Below are positions 37,258 through 44,523 of a stretch of 64,000 bases of DNA, one piece after another; positions within the stretch are counted from its first letter, which is position 1; each line of letters begins with the position of its first letter. The stretch comes from Bacteroidetes bacterium ADurb.Bin174 (GTDB taxonomy: Bacteria > Bacteroidota > Bacteroidia > Bacteroidales > Paludibacteraceae), in contig MWCX01000088.1 in the NCBI GenBank assembly GCA_002070265.1, positions 34,389 through 98,388 of the forward strand, in the 5' to 3' direction. The notes below the pieces were generated by a model. It did no database searches. It was not told the DNA's origin and worked only from the letters and a program-made list of their open reading frames with translations. Both the position numbers and the translations under genes were made by a program.

Positions 37258-37486
37258 TTTTAACCTCTGATACGCATAAGCAACCTATATACTGTGCTTC
37301 TTACTTGCAACAAACTTGTTAGTGCACGCATCTACGTTTGCGTCTGTCTAAATGTTTGATAAAGCAATTACACAATAATCACAGTATGAAACCGACACGA
37401 TTAAAATAATCATTACTTTGTGTGTTTAATGATTATTTTAATCGTCAAAGGTTCCATCTGACAACTAAAAATAATAAATAATACAG

Positions 37487-38245
37487 ATGAAAAAACTCCT
37501 TTTTATAATTTGCTTTTGCATCGGTGCATCCGCACTATTTTCTCAAGACCTGAAAAAATTATCACTGAGCTTCTACGGTGGAGCCAAAATTCTCTCACCA
37601 TCTTTGAATGAAGATTGGCCTATACGTCAGGATGTAAGTTATGGCTACTATGGTGACGAATTTAATGCTCAGGTCAACCTGAATGGAGATATTGCTTATT
37701 TTGGTGTTTCTCCCGAATATCTGATCAACAAAAATTGGTCAGTCGGTTCAGGCCTACGATTTTCGAGATACCTGTCATCCATCATAAAAGACGATTATGA
37801 TCGCGGAGGCTTCTTTTTCCTAAGAGTTAGTCAGGAGGATGAAAGAACTGATTTTGCCCGCATCAGAGCTATCAAAGAAAGTTCGAATTATATAGGAATT
37901 CCTTGGGAGGTAAAATACACTCCCCTGGTGCTTCGCTATTTTGATTTGCATGCCAAACTCACTGTAGAACTCGCCTATCGACTGAACACCCATACAGACA
38001 TTGAGTTTAAGGATGAGGCGATGAAAGCTTATCAAAAGGACGTTCTGCGTGATATAGGTGTAAAAGCCAATCCGTGGTTTTCAACCACTTCTTTGTCTGC
38101 AGGAGCAAGGCTGAAATTGTCAAAGCAAGTTTACTTCTCATGTGATTGGGTTGCACCGGCTTTTTACATAACAAAAAACAACTCAAGCCTGGTGAATGTC
38201 AATAATCTCGGGGGATTTCAATTGTCGATAGACTGGGTATTATAA
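37487..38245 (+). CDS. Hypothetical outer-membrane beta-barrel protein (porin family-like)
   Basis: Signal peptide, amphipathic strands, YIGIP motif and a terminal aromatic-type strand LSIDWVL. Confidence 0.6.
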   Translation: MKKLLFIICFCIGASALFSQDLKKLSLSFYGGAKILSPSLNEDWPIRQDVSYGYYGDEFNAQVNLNGDIAYFGVSPEYLINKNWSVGSGLRFSRYLSSIIKDDYDRGGFFFLRVSQEDERTDFARIRAIKESSNYIGIPWEVKYTPLVLRYFDLHAKLTVELAYRLNTHTDIEFKDEAMKAYQKDVLRDIGVKANPWFSTTSLSAGARLKLSKQVYFSCDWVAPAFYITKNNSSLVNVNNLGGFQLSIDWVL

Positions 38246-38264
38246 AATAGTTAAATTAAAAATT

Positions 38265-38876
38265 ATGGAAAAAAGAAGATATATACACTTTGTTGCCCTG
38301 ACTTTGGCTGTTGCAGCAATCATGAGTTCATGCGCATACGACTCATACGAACTTAGCAAAACCGTATTCATACCTGATTATGAAAACCCGGGATTGCCCA
38401 TTTATTCGGAATGGGGATACAATACCTTTGGTATGTACGTCGACCGCTCAACTTTTGTATCAACTGACCATATATTACCAAGCAAGATCATCGTGAACCC
38501 CGATACTTTCAATATCAGATTAAGTGGTATTTACCAAAGTGTCTCTACAACCTTGCTCATTTCAGTGGTCGGTTATGCCCCAAGAGATTATCCTGATTTA
38601 ATCAGTTTGAATGATTCAACCATCAATTTAAGAGACGACAATTGCATCATTACCCTGAGAAAATTCTCCGAAGAAGCCGTTAAGCTTCCTATTATCGAAG
38701 GCTACATCAATTTTAAAAAGGCTCAAAATTTATACGTAGATAAAGAGTTGACCAAAACGATCCTTTCAGGCACCATCCAGTTCAAAACATTTTTCGATGG
38801 CGAACCTGTGGCAATCACGAATGGCCGGTTTGATCTGGGGATAGGATATGAGAATTTTTATTATTATACAAGATAA
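38265..38876 (+). CDS. Hypothetical lipoprotein
   Basis: Lipobox MSSC; beta-rich; ends GRFDLG, as seen in Bacteroidota lipoproteins. Confidence 0.65.
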   Translation: MEKRRYIHFVALTLAVAAIMSSCAYDSYELSKTVFIPDYENPGLPIYSEWGYNTFGMYVDRSTFVSTDHILPSKIIVNPDTFNIRLSGIYQSVSTTLLISVVGYAPRDYPDLISLNDSTINLRDDNCIITLRKFSEEAVKLPIIEGYINFKKAQNLYVDKELTKTILSGTIQFKTFFDGEPVAITNGRFDLGIGYENFYYYTR

Positions 38877-39059
38877 AATCCCCCAGGAACAATAGCACCC
38901 CCTACACTCATTTCGAGTTTACACTCTCAAAGTTTAAACAAATAAGGATATTCGTTTAAATTCAAAAACTGACCCGCTACTTTTTTCAATGAAGTGCAAG
39001 ATACTGCAGGAAGTGAAGACAGCAGCAGTAGAAAAATGGTTTGTTTGTTTGAATTCACG

Positions 39060-39125
39060 ATTTTTACTATGTCTTTGAAGAACAAGCCTTCTTTCGTATT
39101 CTGCCGGTAAGATTTCTATTTGCAT
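39060..39125 (-). pseudogene. Possible 5' remnant of an integron-type tyrosine recombinase
   Basis: MQIEILPAEYERRLVLQRHSKN resembles the L.R.YS.NT start of the IntI/phage-integrase N-terminal SAM-like domain; divergent from the att-like site; the similarity is lost after about 22 codons. Confidence 0.35.
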
Positions 39126-39240
39126 TTTTTATGCTTATGTGAATTTAATCATTTGTAAACGCAAATGATGTTTAATCAATTTAAATTGTTGTATTTAGTT
39201 GATTTATAGGTGCATATAGAATTACTGCTGAAATGATATG

Positions 39241-39307
39241 CGAATGTTATAAATTTTATATTTACGAATGTTTTGTATATTTGTTTCGTAAATTAAACGT
39301 TAGCGGG
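39241..39307 (+). promoter_or_regulatory. attI-like/promoter element ending at the cassette core GTTAGCGGG
   Basis: CGAATGTT direct repeat, TTTACGAA/TTCGTAAA inverted repeat around TATATTTG (-7 box), then GTT at 39299; 56/61 identical to 44463-44523. Confidence 0.6.
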
Positions 39308-39370
39308 TATGCTATGAAAGACAGTGAAGAAAATAATAATCAAACTAAGAATAGACATGTTTAATCGATT

Positions 39371-40654
39371 ATGACAGAAATAGAACTCTTTGCAAAACAT
39401 TATTTTGGGTTAGGATTAAATGTTACTTGCATTAGCAATCGAATCAATGAACACAACTTCTATTGCAGAAATATCCTCAAAACTCCAAACCATAAATGGA
39501 AACATCTTTTTACTCAAAGACAACTACAAACAGAATTTCAAAAATACGAGTGGGACTCAGCGACAGGTGTAGGATGTGTTACAGGTTTTCAAGATTTGCG
39601 TGTTATTGATATTGACGGTTGCAATGACTACAACTTTTTAGATGAAGTTTTAGCACTATTAGAATTACCTACGAACTACGAGTGGGTTACTTTATCGGGC
39701 AGTAAAAATGGATTTCACATTTTTATTAGTAGCAATAAATTTTCCTACCTTAACGAAAGTCAAGTTGTAACAACATTCCCTCCTAAGGAAGAATATAAAC
39801 ACAAACTTGAAAAGGTTGAGATACTTTGGAATACCCATGTTGTTTTACCACCATCTATTCACAATTCAGGTAATTCATACAGCTTCATAAATTGCAAGTA
39901 TCCTAAATCACTTCCAAAAGTCGTTAAGCATCGAAAAGTTTCAAGTTTTATTGACAAATATCTGCAAGCTGAAAAAAAAATAATTGGACGAGGTTATGGA
40001 GAAGTTCTATTTGAGTTCATTCCACCCAATATCCCAAGTAACCTTGATGAAGATGATGTTTCACGATTAGAAAACAAAACCATCATTTGTGTTTTGGATA
40101 TTGAAACTGATGGCTTACCAAGAAAAAATTTAGTTTCAATTGAATATCCAAACGTGGTTCAAGTTGCTTGGTTGCTAATGGACACAGACGGTAATATTTT
40201 CAAAAAAGAATCAGACCTAATCAACTATCCCAACATTACTTATACAGAGGCATTTGCCGTGAATCAGATTGACATTAACCTTGTCAAAAGAATAGGTAAA
40301 CAACCCGACGAAGCATATAGGAAACTAATCAGTGATATAAAAATTTCTGATTTCATTGTTGCTCATAATATTGATTTTGATTTACCAATATTACGGAGTC
40401 AATTAAAAAAATATCAAGTGCAAGACCCTTTCAGTAGCAAGAAAACAATTTGCACAATGAAGGAAACAATAGATTATTGTAATATTCCAAACTTTGATGG
40501 ACGAAACAAGTTCCCAAAATTGACTGAACTCTACAAAAAACTATTTGACTACGATATTGAGCAAAAACATAATGCGGAATCAGATGCTTTTCTTACGGCA
40601 AAATGTTTTAAAGAGTTATTGACTAAAGGAATTATTGATTTAGACAATTACTAA
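39371..40654 (+). CDS. Fusion of a bifunctional primase-polymerase (AEP, Prim-Pol) and a DEDDh 3'-5' exonuclease
   Basis: AEP motifs LRVID80ID82, SGSKNGFH116 and VVLPPSIH.SG..Y; exonuclease motifs LD243IE245TDG, AHNIDFD337 and H400NAESD405. Confidence 0.85.
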   Translation: MTEIELFAKHYFGLGLNVTCISNRINEHNFYCRNILKTPNHKWKHLFTQRQLQTEFQKYEWDSATGVGCVTGFQDLRVIDIDGCNDYNFLDEVLALLELPTNYEWVTLSGSKNGFHIFISSNKFSYLNESQVVTTFPPKEEYKHKLEKVEILWNTHVVLPPSIHNSGNSYSFINCKYPKSLPKVVKHRKVSSFIDKYLQAEKKIIGRGYGEVLFEFIPPNIPSNLDEDDVSRLENKTIICVLDIETDGLPRKNLVSIEYPNVVQVAWLLMDTDGNIFKKESDLINYPNITYTEAFAVNQIDINLVKRIGKQPDEAYRKLISDIKISDFIVAHNIDFDLPILRSQLKKYQVQDPFSSKKTICTMKETIDYCNIPNFDGRNKFPKLTELYKKLFDYDIEQKHNAESDAFLTAKCFKELLTKGIIDLDNY

Positions 40655-40685
40655 TATTCAGATAAAAAAATAATTAATTCAACCA

Positions 40686-42206
40686 ATGACATTAGTTGAA
40701 AAACATTTTAAAAAGACAGCAAAACTTGTTAGAGCTATTGACAAGAAAGTTATTGCCGAATGGTTATTGACTGAAGGTTATTTTCCTGAACAGTATGTGT
40801 TGCCACCGTCCTTTTCGGTGACAGACTTTAAACTCAAAACCAAACCTTACAATAAAAACCTCAATGACCCTGCAAGAAGAAAGCTTGTAACTATTTCATA
40901 TCCTAAATCACTTCTGACTTCAAGAGTTTTTGGCATCCAACATCCATTTAACTATCATGACATTGTGTTTCATTTGATAGAAGATTGGAAAATTGTTGTT
41001 GACCACATTTTTCATAATGACCTTAAAATATTCTCATATAGTTTTCCTATACCGGTAAATGCAAAAGCAATTGGGAAGCTAGGCAATCTTCGTTCAGGAA
41101 GAATGATTTATGAATGGGTTGAAATGGCGGAAAAAGATATGGTAGCAGAAGCACATAAATATAATTTTATCATTCGTGCTGACATTACCAATTTTTACAA
41201 TTCAGTTTATACACATAGCATTGGTTGGGCTTTACATGGCAGAGAAAAAGCATTTGCCGACAAGGAGTTTAAACTAACAGGGAATAAAGTTGATAAATTA
41301 ATTCAATATGCTAATGACGCAAGGACCAATGGCATTCCAGTTGGTTCAGCACTCAGCGACCTTATTGCTGAAATAGTTCTTACGAGTATAGACAGAAAAG
41401 TATCTTCAAAACTTAAAACAATTAACTTTGTTGGCAGTCGCTTTAAAGATGATTACAGAATTTTATGCAACAGTGAAGATGAAGCTAAAAAAATTCTCAA
41501 AGTGCTTTCAGACGAATTGGTTGAATTTAATTTGCTAATAAACGAACACAAGACAAAGGTTCTTACACTTCCAGACGGACTTTACAGACAACATGATAGA
41601 GAATATCACAATTATTCTCTGAAAGACAAGGAAGCTATACCTTTTAAAACTTTTGAATTAACTCTTTTAAAAGCACTTGACATTCATAAAGCTTACCCAG
41701 GGACAAGTATTCTTGAAAAGTTTTTCTCTGAATTATACGACAACGACAGCAAGCTCAAAATTCAATTTTCAGCTGACAATAACGCAAGGAATAAACAAAT
41801 TTTGAAAGCAATGAGTCTGCTAATGTTGGTTAAACGAGAATCAGAAAAAACTCTGTGTCATGTATTAGCAATCTGTGAAGAGATTTATATAAAATATCGG
41901 TCTCCGAAATTGAAAGAAAAGTTGAAATATTTAATTGAATCTGAGATTGTTAAAGCATCAAACAAAAAATCAGCATTTGAACTAGTTTGGTTAGTATTTT
42001 TTTCTCGTTATCTATCTCTTGGACTAACGACCTTTTCAAAAATGATTGATAAGGAACTAATGGAAACAGCATTTTTAAAATCAGTAATTTCAAGTGAGCA
42101 AAAGTTCTTTAATGACTCAAAGCAAAAACTATTTTTGAAACCCAAAGATTGTAAAACAAAAACTTTATCAAAACGACTTGCAGTATTCGACAGAAATAAG
42201 GAATAG
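40686..42206 (+). CDS. Abi/UG-type (defence-associated) reverse transcriptase with a helical C-terminal extension
   Basis: GYFP..LPP.F, YPK...R, AD166ITNFYNSVYTHSIGWA, GIPVGSALSDLIAE, RFKD255D256Y and L.IN..KT; about 210-aa helical tail. Confidence 0.9.
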   Translation: MTLVEKHFKKTAKLVRAIDKKVIAEWLLTEGYFPEQYVLPPSFSVTDFKLKTKPYNKNLNDPARRKLVTISYPKSLLTSRVFGIQHPFNYHDIVFHLIEDWKIVVDHIFHNDLKIFSYSFPIPVNAKAIGKLGNLRSGRMIYEWVEMAEKDMVAEAHKYNFIIRADITNFYNSVYTHSIGWALHGREKAFADKEFKLTGNKVDKLIQYANDARTNGIPVGSALSDLIAEIVLTSIDRKVSSKLKTINFVGSRFKDDYRILCNSEDEAKKILKVLSDELVEFNLLINEHKTKVLTLPDGLYRQHDREYHNYSLKDKEAIPFKTFELTLLKALDIHKAYPGTSILEKFFSELYDNDSKLKIQFSADNNARNKQILKAMSLLMLVKRESEKTLCHVLAICEEIYIKYRSPKLKEKLKYLIESEIVKASNKKSAFELVWLVFFSRYLSLGLTTFSKMIDKELMETAFLKSVISSEQKFFNDSKQKLFLKPKDCKTKTLSKRLAVFDRNKE

Positions 42207-42219
42207 ACAAGAAGCACGA

Positions 42220-42353
42220 CCCGCTAACAGGCGTTTGGCTCAATGGCGGGTGACGTGGTTAATTGAACATACTTACTCGCATCAACTTTTGTGGTGTATT
42301 GACAGTTTTGCACTCCGAAATCCGCCACTGCGCCAAGCGCCAAAACGGTAAAT
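42220..42353 (+). mobile_element. attC-like recombination site closing the Prim-Pol/RT cassette
   Basis: CCCGCTAAC lies 13 nt after the RT stop and is the exact reverse complement of 39299-39307; 20-nt arms 42230-42249 and 42322-42341 have 3 mismatches; the end GGTAAAT is one change from GTTRRRY. Confidence 0.7.
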
Positions 42354-42429
42354 GCCATGCGGTCATTTTAACAAAAAGAAAAATTTGTATTTTTACTAAA
42401 ACCATCAAATAAGAACAAACAAATTTTTT

Positions 42430-42617
42430 TATGCCGCACGGTATTTACCCCAAACCATTGGGTGCAAGTATAGCAAAACCTACCAACGAAAGCGATTGGT
42501 AGCCATAAGAGTAATAGCAGTACGACAACCCTTGACAACGCAAAATTCACGAAATCAGAACCCTTGCAGAGTAACTGGATAAAGAGCTTGCAAAAGTCGA
42601 GAAGAAATATGCATTAA
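42430..42617 (+). pseudogene. Decayed small ORF (possible second cassette gene)
   Basis: Protein-like fragments in different frames (HWVQV*QNLP, RLVAIRVIA, QRKIHEIRTLAE*LDKELAKVEKKYA) separated by stops and frameshifts. Confidence 0.3.
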
Positions 42618-42619
42618 TC

Positions 42620-42660
42620 CATCATCAAGTGGGAAAAACCCACTTGATGATGTTGTTTTT
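42620..42660 (+). terminator. Intrinsic terminator
   Basis: Perfect 14-bp stem catcatcaagtggg/cccacttgatgatg followed by a T-rich tail. Confidence 0.85.
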
Positions 42661-42725
42661 TAGATTAAAATGTTATTTTAATTCTTTTTTTATGCAATTT
42701 TGCGGAAAATTAGAAGTAAATAAAA

Positions 42726-42911
42726 ATGAAATTTTGGCAATTAAGAAATCAATTTTACGACTTGATATGTTTCAATATAAATCAAGTTTATGCGTGGCAA
42801 CCTGGTTTTGATAAAAACAATCTCACTCGTTGGGTAAAACAAAATTTGCTCGTAAAATTGCGTAATTCGTGGTATAGTTTCCCGGATTATGTAAAGATGT
42901 CTGTCTCATAA
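42726..42911 (+). pseudogene. Truncated AbiEi-like (type IV TA antitoxin) N-terminal winged-helix gene, cut by a MITE
   Basis: CFNINQVYAWQPGFDKNNLTRWVKQNLLVKLRNSWY resembles the AbiEi N-terminal HTH; the stop TAA is supplied by the inserted GTCTCATAA end. Confidence 0.55.
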
Positions 42912-43006
42912 GTGCCCAACTGCTGTGCTTCGACTTCGCTCAGCAACCACGTTACTTTCGATGGTTGCTGAGCCTGTTGAAGCACGGGCTCAGTCACATA
43001 CTTCAA
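42902..43006. mobile_element. MITE-like copy carrying a nested REP-like palindrome
   Basis: tgtctcataagtgcccaactgctg...cgggctcagtcacatacttcaa aligns with the reverse complement of about 18503-18563; extra arms at 42926-42949 and 42963-42984. Confidence 0.75.
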
Positions 43007-43165
43007 AGAAATACCACATCTTTACTTTCAAACTAAGGTTTCATTGGATTCATTTCAGCATGTGACGCACGGCATGACCCTCCACCATCATATCCATACC
43101 ACCGCTGTTACCGCTACTTGAGCTTGGTTGACCCTCGCCGTACAGAATTCTACGGCACATATTCT

Positions 43166-43465
43166 TTACATCAATAACACGCCGCTGATTTTTGAGACGA
43201 ACAGCACCAAATAGATCAACAGACCCGTTATAATGATTATGGTGAAAATCGCGAACACTAGCCCCAGGCAGCCCCATTTACGTTTCCCGTCGGGGAGTTT
43301 GTCAAACAAAAGCGTTATCAATAACCCTATGAATGGAGTAGTCAATATTGAAAACAGATAGGACCATCCGAAACCTATCTTCCTACGCGCTCCCACCAGG
43401 CCTACCAACACTGAAATCAGCGAAAAAGATATAACACCAAATATCAAAAGAGTAGCAGTTATCAT
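43166..43465 (-). CDS. Small hypothetical membrane protein
   Basis: 99 aa with three hydrophobic segments; G.RRKIGFGWS motif; ATG start. Confidence 0.65.
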   Translation of the reverse strand: MITATLLIFGVISFSLISVLVGLVGARRKIGFGWSYLFSILTTPFIGLLITLLFDKLPDGKRKWGCLGLVFAIFTIIIITGLLIYLVLFVSKISGVLLM

Positions 43466-43598
43466 GAGTACAATGTTTTATCAACCGCGTAAAAATACAT
43501 ATTTTTTCAAAAAATACTGTCTTTACTGCGTTATAAAAGAATATACTTTTAAAACAGACAGGGCAATCTCAACACAAATATTCAACTAAAAATAATAA

Positions 43599-43727
43599 GG
43601 TGTCTCAAAAGTGTCCATATGTGAGACTCTAAGATTGAGGACTGTAGAGGAAGACTTGCGCGTCTGCCCTCGGTGACTGAGCTCAAATATCGAAAGTAAC
43701 GAAGCAGTTGGGCGCTTATGAGACACC
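43599..43727. mobile_element. MITE-like element with 13-bp terminal inverted repeats
   Basis: GGTGTCTCAAAAG ... CTTATGAGACACC (1 mismatch); interior homologous to 18447-18565. Confidence 0.8.
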
Positions 43728-43842
43728 GACCAATACCGACAGAAATGCAACAAAAACATGAAAAAGCAATGACAAGTTTCGGAAAAAAGATACTTATCTT
43801 GGAAGAAACATTAACTTTGCGCCTGGATTAAATATCAAAATA

Positions 43843-44289
43843 ATGAAAAAACAACTCAAAATAGCCTTGGTAGCACACGATGCACGCAAGGCAGACATGG
43901 TAGAATGGGCAGTTTTTAACTCGGATATGCTTTCGCAGCATAAACTAATTTGTACGGGAACTACCGGCGGGCTGATACAGAAAGCCTTTGAAAATGAAGG
44001 AATAGAAGTAGAGGTTGAACGTAAAAACTCCGGTCCGATGGGTGGCGATGCCGAAATTGCTGCAATGGTTGTGAACAAACAAATAGATTTTTGCGTGTTT
44101 TTGATAGACGACCTAAGCGCAAATCCGCACGAAGCTGACATACAGATGCTTTTACGTCAGTGCCGTATTCACAATATCCCAATAGCCTGCAACCGTTATA
44201 GTGCAGATTTGATGATTACCAGTCCGCTGTGGGACAATGATGAGTATGTGCCGAAAGACCCGCAATATATTCCTTTTCATCGTGAATAA
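43843..44289 (+). CDS. mgsA: Methylglyoxal synthase
   Basis: IALVAHD..K, TGTTG, SGPMGGDAEI, PHEADI and NIPIACN motifs. Confidence 0.96.
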   Translation: MKKQLKIALVAHDARKADMVEWAVFNSDMLSQHKLICTGTTGGLIQKAFENEGIEVEVERKNSGPMGGDAEIAAMVVNKQIDFCVFLIDDLSANPHEADIQMLLRQCRIHNIPIACNRYSADLMITSPLWDNDEYVPKDPQYIPFHRE

Positions 44290-44341
44290 ATATTGCGGTT
44301 TCCGACAGATTATATTACATTTGCGGTCTCAAAATATCCAT

Positions 44342-44412
44342 TGACTTATGGTGTAATGGTAGCACTACAGATTCTGGATCTGTCTGTCTAGGTTCGAATC
44401 CTAGTAAGTCAG
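44342..44412 (+). tRNA. tRNA-Gln (anticodon CTG)
   Basis: Acceptor stem TGACTTA/TAAGTCA, anticodon arm ACAGA-TTCTGGA-TCTGT, T-arm CTAGG-TTCGAAT-CCTAG; upstream TACATTTG at 44316. Confidence 0.95.
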
Positions 44413-44425
44413 CAAACTCTCCTTC

Positions 44426-44447
44426 CAATTTCCCGTTCCGGGAAATT
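44426..44447 (+). terminator. Hairpin after tRNA-Gln
   Basis: aatttcccg-ttc-cgggaaatt. Confidence 0.6.
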
Positions 44448-44462
44448 AAATGAATTGATACA

Positions 44463-44523
44463 CGAATGTTTTAAGTTTTATATTTACGAATGTTTTGTAT
44501 ATTTGTTCCGTAAATTAGATGTT
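44463..44523 (+). promoter_or_regulatory. Second copy of the attI-like/promoter element
   Basis: 56/61 identical to 39241-39301, ending at GTT. Confidence 0.6.

Follow-up and report, generated by a model that had tools for sequence, protein, structure and literature searches.

DRT7/UG10 (PPRT) encodes three activities together: an AEP primase-polymerase (Prim-Pol), a Class 1-type reverse transcriptase (RT) and a 3′–5′ DNA exonuclease. In this system, the Prim-Pol is fused to an RT-like domain, synthesis is protein-primed and the exonuclease activity lies in the RT-like domain (PMC12439943). A preprint reports that Class 1 DRTs synthesise DNA without a template (PMC13174585). The Class 1 group UG14 is named once in Mestre et al. 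2022, among seven strongly defence-island-enriched groups predicted as novel defence genes, and the main text of that study names no gene associated with it (PMC9226505); our literature search found no experimentally tested UG14 member. Defence genes are also carried in integron cassettes (BRiCs), and a pseudo-attC with a crossover mismatch has been described beside a defence system outside an integron (Kieffer et al., 10.1101/2024.07.02.601719). Here we analyse a 64,000-nucleotide (nt) stretch of DNA from Bacteroidetes bacterium ADurb.Bin174 (assembly GCA_002070265.1, contig MWCX01000088.1, positions 34,389 to 98,388; hereafter referred to as the window), in which a gene for a Prim-Pol/DEDDh exonuclease fusion (gene 1) is followed by a UG14 RT gene (gene 2).

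An earlier note on this DNA had proposed that the two genes form one module of primer synthesis, reverse transcription and 3′–5′ degradation. Adjacency and the short spacer, taken alone, suggested a new three-activity DRT system; the comparative data point instead to a recent fusion of two mobile units. We consider it rather probable that two independent defence modules have been fused into one integron-type cassette, and that the pair is not a dedicated two-gene system.

Identity of the two genes

Gene 1 (39371..40654, + strand, 427 amino acids (aa)) comprises an AEP Prim-Pol (residues ~1 to 220) and a DEDDh 3′–5′ exonuclease (residues ~235 to 427), and gene 2 (40686..42206, + strand, 506 aa) encodes a UG14 RT of the Class 1 UG/Abi type. 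The 31-nt spacer between them (40655..40685, + strand) contains the joint of the two fused cassettes. The GC content across 39000–42000 is 0.29–0.34, compared with 0.37–0.45 in the flanks; the open reading frames (ORFs) and the GC profile agree with the earlier description of two co-oriented, AT-rich genes, both of which are intact, and a residue check located every residue and motif named for either protein at the position given. A terminator search of the spacer found no terminator-like site, also as described. The accompanying statement that no att site separates the genes holds for the spacer, but recombination-type sites flank the pair, namely a GTT at 39299–39301 and an attC-like element at 42222–42353.

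The domain assignments for gene 1 were borne out by profile and fold. Pfam Prim-Pol (PF09250) matches residues 41 to 183 at 2e-9, and the PADLOC DEDDh model matches residues 240 to 413 at 3.6e-22. Among 28 homologues, the AEP catalytic residues (D80 and D82 of the DxD motif, and H116) are invariant and the exonuclease residues D243, E245, D337 and D405 are nearly so; H400 of the DEDDh motif is present in the window protein. The AlphaFold2 model (pLDDT 91, pTM 0.87) resembles the pRN1 ORF904-type Prim-Pol in its N-terminal half (Foldseek matches to 1ro0, 1rni and 3m1m at ~5e-7) and DnaQ, PolC, the DinG exonuclease domain and TREX1/2 in its C-terminal half, and by residues and fold gene 1 thus belongs to both the AEP Prim-Pols and the DEDDh (DnaQ-like) exonucleases. 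Domain scans and the model revealed no helicase, origin-binding or zinc-binding domain, and PADLOC, which matches the DEDDh domain alone, has no model that spans the whole protein. A viral contig collection yielded a single distant homologue. We rejected a phage or satellite origin of gene 1, given this one viral-contig match and matches to PHROGs via the exonuclease domain alone. No function has been described for the Prim-Pol/DEDDh family, whose members are found repeatedly in multi-gene cassettes together with PLD, DUF4238 and HEPN-like genes. The Prim-Pol module of the family is also found fused to a PRTase-CE domain or, instead of the exonuclease, to a TIGR02145-type domain (L035:245-2941; proteins P0045–P0049; L007, L008 and L025), and with an N-terminal extension of ~200 aa in Prevotella and Bacteroides (656 aa; L007, L008 and L025 are listed among these variants).

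Gene 2 was correctly placed by the earlier note among the UG/Abi RTs; it is not unclassified, however, but a member of the named group UG14. The PADLOC RT_UG14 model matches it with an E-value of 9.3e-211, aligning residues 2 to 503 with model positions 2 to 492 of 493, which is the best match among the UG, Abi and DRT groups. The next-best model is Drt6 (2.6e-70), with Drt6, Drt4 and AbiP2 spanning 1e-70 to 1e-57, and the RT_UG10 models score merely ~1e-16. The protein contains GYFP at residue 31, LPP at 39, FYNSVYTHSIGWA at 170, GIPVG at 216 and the YxDD-type motif C as FKDD at 253–256; D255 and D256 are invariant among 16 homologues, as is the stretch from R252 to R258 (RFKDDYR), and relatives at 58–97% identity are all ~506 to 536 residues long. 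Pfam detects RVT_1 alone. In the AlphaFold2 model (pLDDT 82), helices extend from about residue 320 to 470, forming a C-terminal domain predicted to be helical; to this extent the protein has the Class 1 UG/Abi layout of an RT followed by an α-helical repeat domain, with no other known domain. The nearest Foldseek matches are DRT4, UG15, Abi-P2, DRT6 and AbiK, over ~470–500 columns and thus near full length, and a profile of the 16 homologues has Abi-P2, UG15/DRT4, Drt3b and AbiK among its matches to solved structures.

The window RT therefore shares with UG14 and its Class 1 relatives (DRT4/UG15, Abi-P2, DRT6/UG12 and AbiK) the full-length profile match, the FKDD motif, the helical C-terminal domain, the fold and the defence-gene surroundings. 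It differs from UG14 genes elsewhere in its position: those have 60–390 nt upstream and varying neighbours, whereas the window RT follows gene 1 after 31 nt, without an upstream region of its own. By analogy with Class 1 enzymes, the gene 2 product may make DNA template-independently, and the invariant GYFPEQY loop (residues 31 to 37; modelled with low confidence) is a candidate priming loop, as in AbiK. A template non-coding RNA beside the RT was sought and not found: there was no Rfam match, and BLAST of the 400-nt flanks of six RT loci, a weak test, recovered the conserved attC alone. A viral contig search with the RT returned one 37% relative.

Although the window and DRT7/UG10 encode the same three activities, DRT7 is one polypeptide, whereas the window has two proteins, with a separate DEDDh domain on the Prim-Pol and an RT of group UG14 rather than UG10. 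With two ORFs, the low RT_UG10 score and a pairing that is not conserved, the locus does not belong to DRT7/UG10.

Occurrence of the two genes elsewhere

The protein search returned 61 clusters of gene 1 homologues; the RT search yielded 717 clusters among the 8000 candidates scored, a number that includes other RT groups as well as UG14. We fetched 42 gene 1 homologue loci, of which 26 (25 of them non-self) had at least 600 nt downstream and were informative. An RT was present in one of the 26, a metagenome contig 99.95% identical to the window (L011), and in none of the 25 non-self loci, with homologues up to 86% identical. Gene 1 was likewise absent from all eight distinct UG14 contexts, at ~65–97% identity (76–97% where fetched by protein). 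The two genes do not recur side by side in unrelated genomes, and their pairing is confined to the window lineage, at 100% and 98% identity. The earlier note had set this check beforehand as a refuting test, and the outcome, homologues that are rarely adjacent, leaves a conserved module of this kind without comparative support; the idea survives only as a possibility for this one lineage. Both genes are accessory, being absent from all 40 relatives examined, including 24 genomes of the same genus.

Close homologues of gene 1 have other neighbours. The 86% homologue in L052 is followed, after 3 nt, by a broken DUF4238 gene; the 84% homologue in L039 has a PDC-S56 gene upstream; the 78% homologue P0005 has BrxL upstream and two downstream genes without Pfam matches; and the 65% homologue in L042 precedes an unrelated gene. 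A distant homologue in L024 stands alone between the RNase G and RadA genes. In one conserved operon type, belonging to the more distant subfamilies, a PLD-family protein (~455 aa) precedes the gene 1 homologue, which is followed by either a 298-aa R-x4-H protein or a 335-aa DUF4238 protein. Rst_DUF4238 defends against T7 as a single protein (Rousset et al. 2022, PMC9122126); DUF4238 follows gene 1 homologues in L012, L013 and L052 and is absent from the window, where the RT occupies its position.

This PLD–Prim-Pol/DEDDh operon, with a 472-aa Prim-Pol/DEDDh protein followed by DUF4238 or the 298-aa protein, was observed at L012:1410-5677 and also in L001, L002, L013, L015, L021, L023 and L027. 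Its PLD protein has weak DrmC-like matches and the operon matched no PADLOC system model; bounded by attC in L012, it is a candidate multi-gene defence cassette. In a second conserved operon type (L003, L004, L016, L018–L020 and L022), a Prim-Pol/DEDDh gene 41–43% identical to gene 1 is followed by overlapping 218-aa and 258-aa genes.

The neighbours of UG14 RTs include SIR2-HATPase on a conjugative element, Mrr, GmrSD, an MmeI-type enzyme with an SNF2/PLD helicase and DruA, a Schlafen-like ATPase, PglZ, an Eco57I-type enzyme and AbiE, and the defence-related setting that the earlier note assigned to the pair is supported. Only 2 of 401 surveyed genomes of the phylum carry UG14, which is not enough for statistics on its neighbourhood. 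At L091:5001-7120, UG14 lies next to PglZ and an SNF2 helicase; a 200-aa gene there shares 4 nt with the end of the RT gene, including its stop, and 61 nt separate the RT from a 235-aa gene upstream. Neither of the two recurs in the other UG14 contexts, and both may be local partners.

Breakpoints of the gene pair

DNA homology to gene 1-type loci (L052, L038 and L039) extends from window position 39299 or 39368 to 40657–40671, and homology to RT-type loci (L043, L045 and L053) from 40667 or 40686 to 42221–42245; therefore, the two units meet inside the 31-nt spacer. The absence of an attC between the two genes makes the pair a single fused cassette. At the left border, homology with the gene 1 cassette of L052 starts at 39299, the first position of a GTT (39299..39301, + strand) that corresponds to an R′-type crossover triplet. 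The border sequence GTTAGCGG(G/T)(C/T)AT is also found after the GTT that ends attC-like copies in C44, L013 and L039.

Contigs of ~2975 nt in the metagenome runs X18 and X20 carry a variant of the pair. They cover 39295/39298 to 42236 with 54 differences (98.2% identity), and their first 17–21 letters, to the left of 39295 and 39298, are unlike the window; a second variant thus also contains the fused pair as a unit, apparently with a different sequence context on its left. Among 34 listed in-gene differences, 22 are synonymous and 12 are not, in a partial list of which a few entries perhaps derive from another run.

Each half also occurs in cassettes without the other. In L046 the order is attC, RT, attC. 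In L012 it is attC; PLD, gene 1 homologue and DUF4238; attC; a 289-aa gene; attC; a 1087-aa gene; and attC. In L022 the gene 1 homologue and the 218-aa and 258-aa genes precede an attC. The RT of L053 (L053:1224-2744), which is 94% identical to the window RT in DNA and 97% in protein, resembles it from exactly the ATG onwards, and the gene before it (L053:196-1146) is an unrelated one of 316 aa with no family match, which points to the RT having been exchanged recently, as a unit of one gene.

attC-like sites

The attC-like site of the RT cassette (42222..42353, + strand, 132 nt) directly follows the RT stop codon and was detected with nhmmer at 1e-38, using a model built from 35 copies. It begins with R″ (CGCTAAC, 42222–42228), followed by long complementary arms. 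At the R′ position (42347–42349), the window copy has GGT instead of the GTT crossover triplet (AAAACGGTA, compared with AAAACGTTA in other copies).

With this model, 31 copies were detected in this genome (G000), spread over 17 contigs, and many in the fetched loci. Copies always lie on the gene strand, directly after a stop codon. Common to them are a 5′ ..TAAC, a 3′ GTTA.. and long pairing arms. UG14 RT genes in L046 and L089, and an Mrr gene in L045, are likewise followed by a member of the family. Between copies, the arms covary (GGCGTTTGGC/GCCAAGCGCC, GCGTGTATGTG/CACATACACGC and GCGGGTTTAAG/CTTAAACCCGC): fifteen stem pairs are 86% canonical, compared with 34–40% when the 3′ partner is slid by one to three columns, and double-sided changes occupy 162 cells, compared with 27–40 in the slid controls. 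Across the 35 copies, ORFs are followed by a same-strand site with R″/L″ and L′/R′ boxes and paired arms, as in integron cassettes. On this sequence evidence, that is, anatomy, covariation, position and array structure, we identify the element as having integron attC anatomy.

In G000, the contigs with copies are C5, C6, C16, C21, C23, C31, C38, C44, C49, C54, C55, C68, C70, C74, C79, C88 and C91; the copies are ~132–165 nt long, and many lie at contig ends or in arrays of two to four, with four in 4.5 kilobases (kb) on C74. Other attC-bounded cassettes of this genome hold a PsyrT-like helicase with a partner gene, a type II methyltransferase with a putative nuclease, PD-T7-4 and PDC-S05. The compact same-strand defence genes, the imperfect AAC...GTT palindromes and the arrays are shared with defence-carrying integron cassettes (BRiCs; Kieffer et al.) and with integrase-less attC arrays (CALINs). 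In contrast to these, the window genome lacks a canonical IntI, its sites are long (~132 nt), with a sequence that is conserved between several genomes and metagenome contigs, and its mini-arrays are scattered, several being headed by a repeated promoter-like element.

The best integrase candidate in the assembly (C91) lacks the IntI-specific insertion, and no complete integron was found. A 61-residue C-terminal tyrosine recombinase fragment on C54 (C54:3593-3772, − strand), is 54% identical to a canonical IntI of G446. It has the same orientation as three attC-like copies (C54:47-2704), lies upstream of them, and may be an integron integrase remnant in inverted orientation. The attC family is also present in G446 (L045). 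That genome has two IntI matches above 430 bits, one of them interrupted by a stop codon, and no attC of the window family was detected near either match. An integrase remnant at 38934–39125 was considered and rejected, as tblastn with canonical IntI gave no similarity in 38701–39400 even at E 10.

Promoter-like repeat at the cassette head

The cassette is headed by a dispersed promoter-like repeat (39180..39301, + strand), which contains two ACGAATGTT direct repeats and a Bacteroidota-type −7 box (TATATTTG, 39276–39283) and ends in ..AAACGTT. The repeat has eight copies in the genome, each directly upstream of a same-strand ORF: two in the window (39180–39301 and 44451–44523), three on C21 (20879–20927, 22293–22392 and 29186–29298), and one each at C16:40183-40316, C38:11928-11975 and C70:1102-1166. 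In five of the eight, a same-strand attC-like copy follows 0.7–8.7 kb downstream, within 3 kb in four of them; a rough estimate puts the chance expectation at ~1.6% per copy. Its consensus box alone suggests a promoter function, and the repeat may represent either a promoter or an attI-like head of integrase-less mini-arrays. Co-transcription of gene 1 and the RT is likely. The 73-nt direct repeat shared by 39229–39301 and 44451–44523, beside tRNA-Gln, was considered as a pair of tRNA-island att sites and rejected, given the eight copies that each precede an ORF.

Genomic variability and distribution

In the closest relative (G004; contigs C51 and C119), 4.9 kb of the window (38876–43752) is replaced by ~36 kb. 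The relative shares two lipoprotein genes on one side (37271–38875, 89%) and mgsA and tRNA-Gln on the other (43752–44435, 92%), and its homology ends 22 nt past tRNA-Gln; both sides are variable hotspots. An empty-site comparison with relatives found broken synteny and an evident variable region, and no clean empty site. Within the replaced segment, short inverted repeat copies (42902–42987 and 43684–43725; 23 nt, 96% complementary) flank a small membrane-protein gene (43166–43465, − strand), and a copy of 42904–42987 is also present in G004.

Many metagenomes of activated sludge, digesters and wastewater, dated from 2016 to 2025, contain the stretch. Depth over the attC is hundreds- to thousands-fold and the sequences upstream of it are highly varied, indicating that the attC family is abundant in those communities.

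Origin and possible functions of the pair

A fusion of two separate modules, probably recent, would account for the locus as follows. Loss of the attC between two independent cassettes would have left one fused cassette, the promoter-bearing repeat (39180–39301) would probably drive a single transcript through gene 1 and the RT, and the mutated crossover triplet of the terminal attC-like site has probably fixed the pair in place. The RT most likely acts as a Class 1 UG/Abi enzyme, in which protein-primed, template-free DNA synthesis would block phage growth without a partner gene, because its sequence and predicted fold group with DRT4/UG15, Abi-P2, DRT6 and AbiK. Gene 1 would be a primase-polymerase with 3′–5′ trimming in cis, whose usual neighbours (PLD with DUF4238 or a HEPN-like gene, or two genes without assigned function) would have been lost here. 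The two proteins would then work independently, each in defence.

Several observations weigh against this fusion of independent modules. attC-bounded cassettes in G000 and L012 hold two to four genes that resemble real multi-gene systems, such as a methyltransferase with a putative restriction enzyme or a PsyrT-like helicase with its partner gene, so that sharing one cassette could also be the sign of a functional unit. At least two sequence variants keep the fused pair intact, and the RT side of the co-occurrence comparison comprises eight contexts only. The 95%-complete G000 assembly contains no canonical integron integrase, with no match above the TIGR02249 cut-off. Finally, DRT7/UG10, in which Prim-Pol, RT and 3′–5′ exonuclease activity are joined in one protein, is a working precedent for such a combination (PMC12439943). 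The same precedent is among the arguments for the view, the earlier note's idea narrowed to this lineage, that the pair is a lineage-specific two-gene system, in which the UG14 RT took the slot of gene 1's downstream partner and the two proteins act on the same DNA product as a split DRT7 arrangement. The gene after gene 1 is tightly linked in most loci, overlapping it or separated by 15 nt or less in subfamilies A and B and by 3 nt in L052, and this partner varies among close homologues, with a HEPN-like or a DUF4238 gene after the same PLD–gene 1 core. The 31 nt without an attC between the window genes, and the persistence of the pair with mostly synonymous differences, also fit such a system. 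However, UG14 RTs occur elsewhere without gene 1, and in L046 as a single-gene cassette; more distant gene 1 homologues stand alone between housekeeping genes (L024); the apparent partners may be independent neighbours, given that DUF4238 is a stand-alone defence protein (PMC9122126); and the breakpoints show two units joined abruptly, without signs of co-adaptation. We regard a two-gene system of this kind as unlikely.

AEP Prim-Pols are typical of mobile-element replication and repair, and gene 1 could accordingly be cassette cargo beside an RT that alone provides defence, functioning as a repair or damage-tolerance polymerase with proofreading or as a mobile-element replication gene. The distant homologue between the RNase G and RadA genes, the PADLOC match confined to the DEDDh domain and the contribution of the DRT7 Prim-Pol domain to an oxidative-damage response (PMC12439943) are consistent with such a role. 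Yet the protein has neither a helicase nor an origin-binding domain, viral contigs yielded one distant homologue only, the gene is missing from all 40 relatives, and close homologues have BrxL, PDC-S56, DUF4238 and PLD/DrmC-like genes as neighbours in attC-bounded cassettes, which together make a non-defence role improbable. That the pair is decaying cargo of a dead integron, with no current function, appears very improbable: the GGT crossover triplet, the assembly's lack of a canonical integrase beyond the C54 fragment and the broken DUF4238 gene beside the 86% homologue in L052 would fit, whereas both ORFs are intact with all catalytic residues, the listed differences between variants are mostly synonymous and the stretch recurs in many wastewater and digester metagenomes.

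A broader proposal, which we put forward as a speculative and rather doubtful one, takes Prim-Pol/DEDDh as the shared core of a cassette-borne defence family whose partners can be exchanged: DUF4238 or a HEPN-like protein together with a PLD nuclease, two proteins of no assigned family, or, here, the UG14 RT. The window pair would then be a split DRT7-like machine, in which the Prim-Pol primes or copies the RT product and the exonuclease trims it, and the repeat-headed mini-arrays would be a Bacteroidota form of integron without an adjacent integrase.

UG14, which in the literature searched is only a predicted defence group, is seen in L046 to travel as a single-gene cassette of the integron type. 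In wastewater communities, this long attC family of conserved sequence is abundant, and defence genes are carried in the cassettes that it bounds. If the two proteins of the window do cooperate, the locus would illustrate how cassette fusion after attC loss can build a new multi-enzyme defence system.

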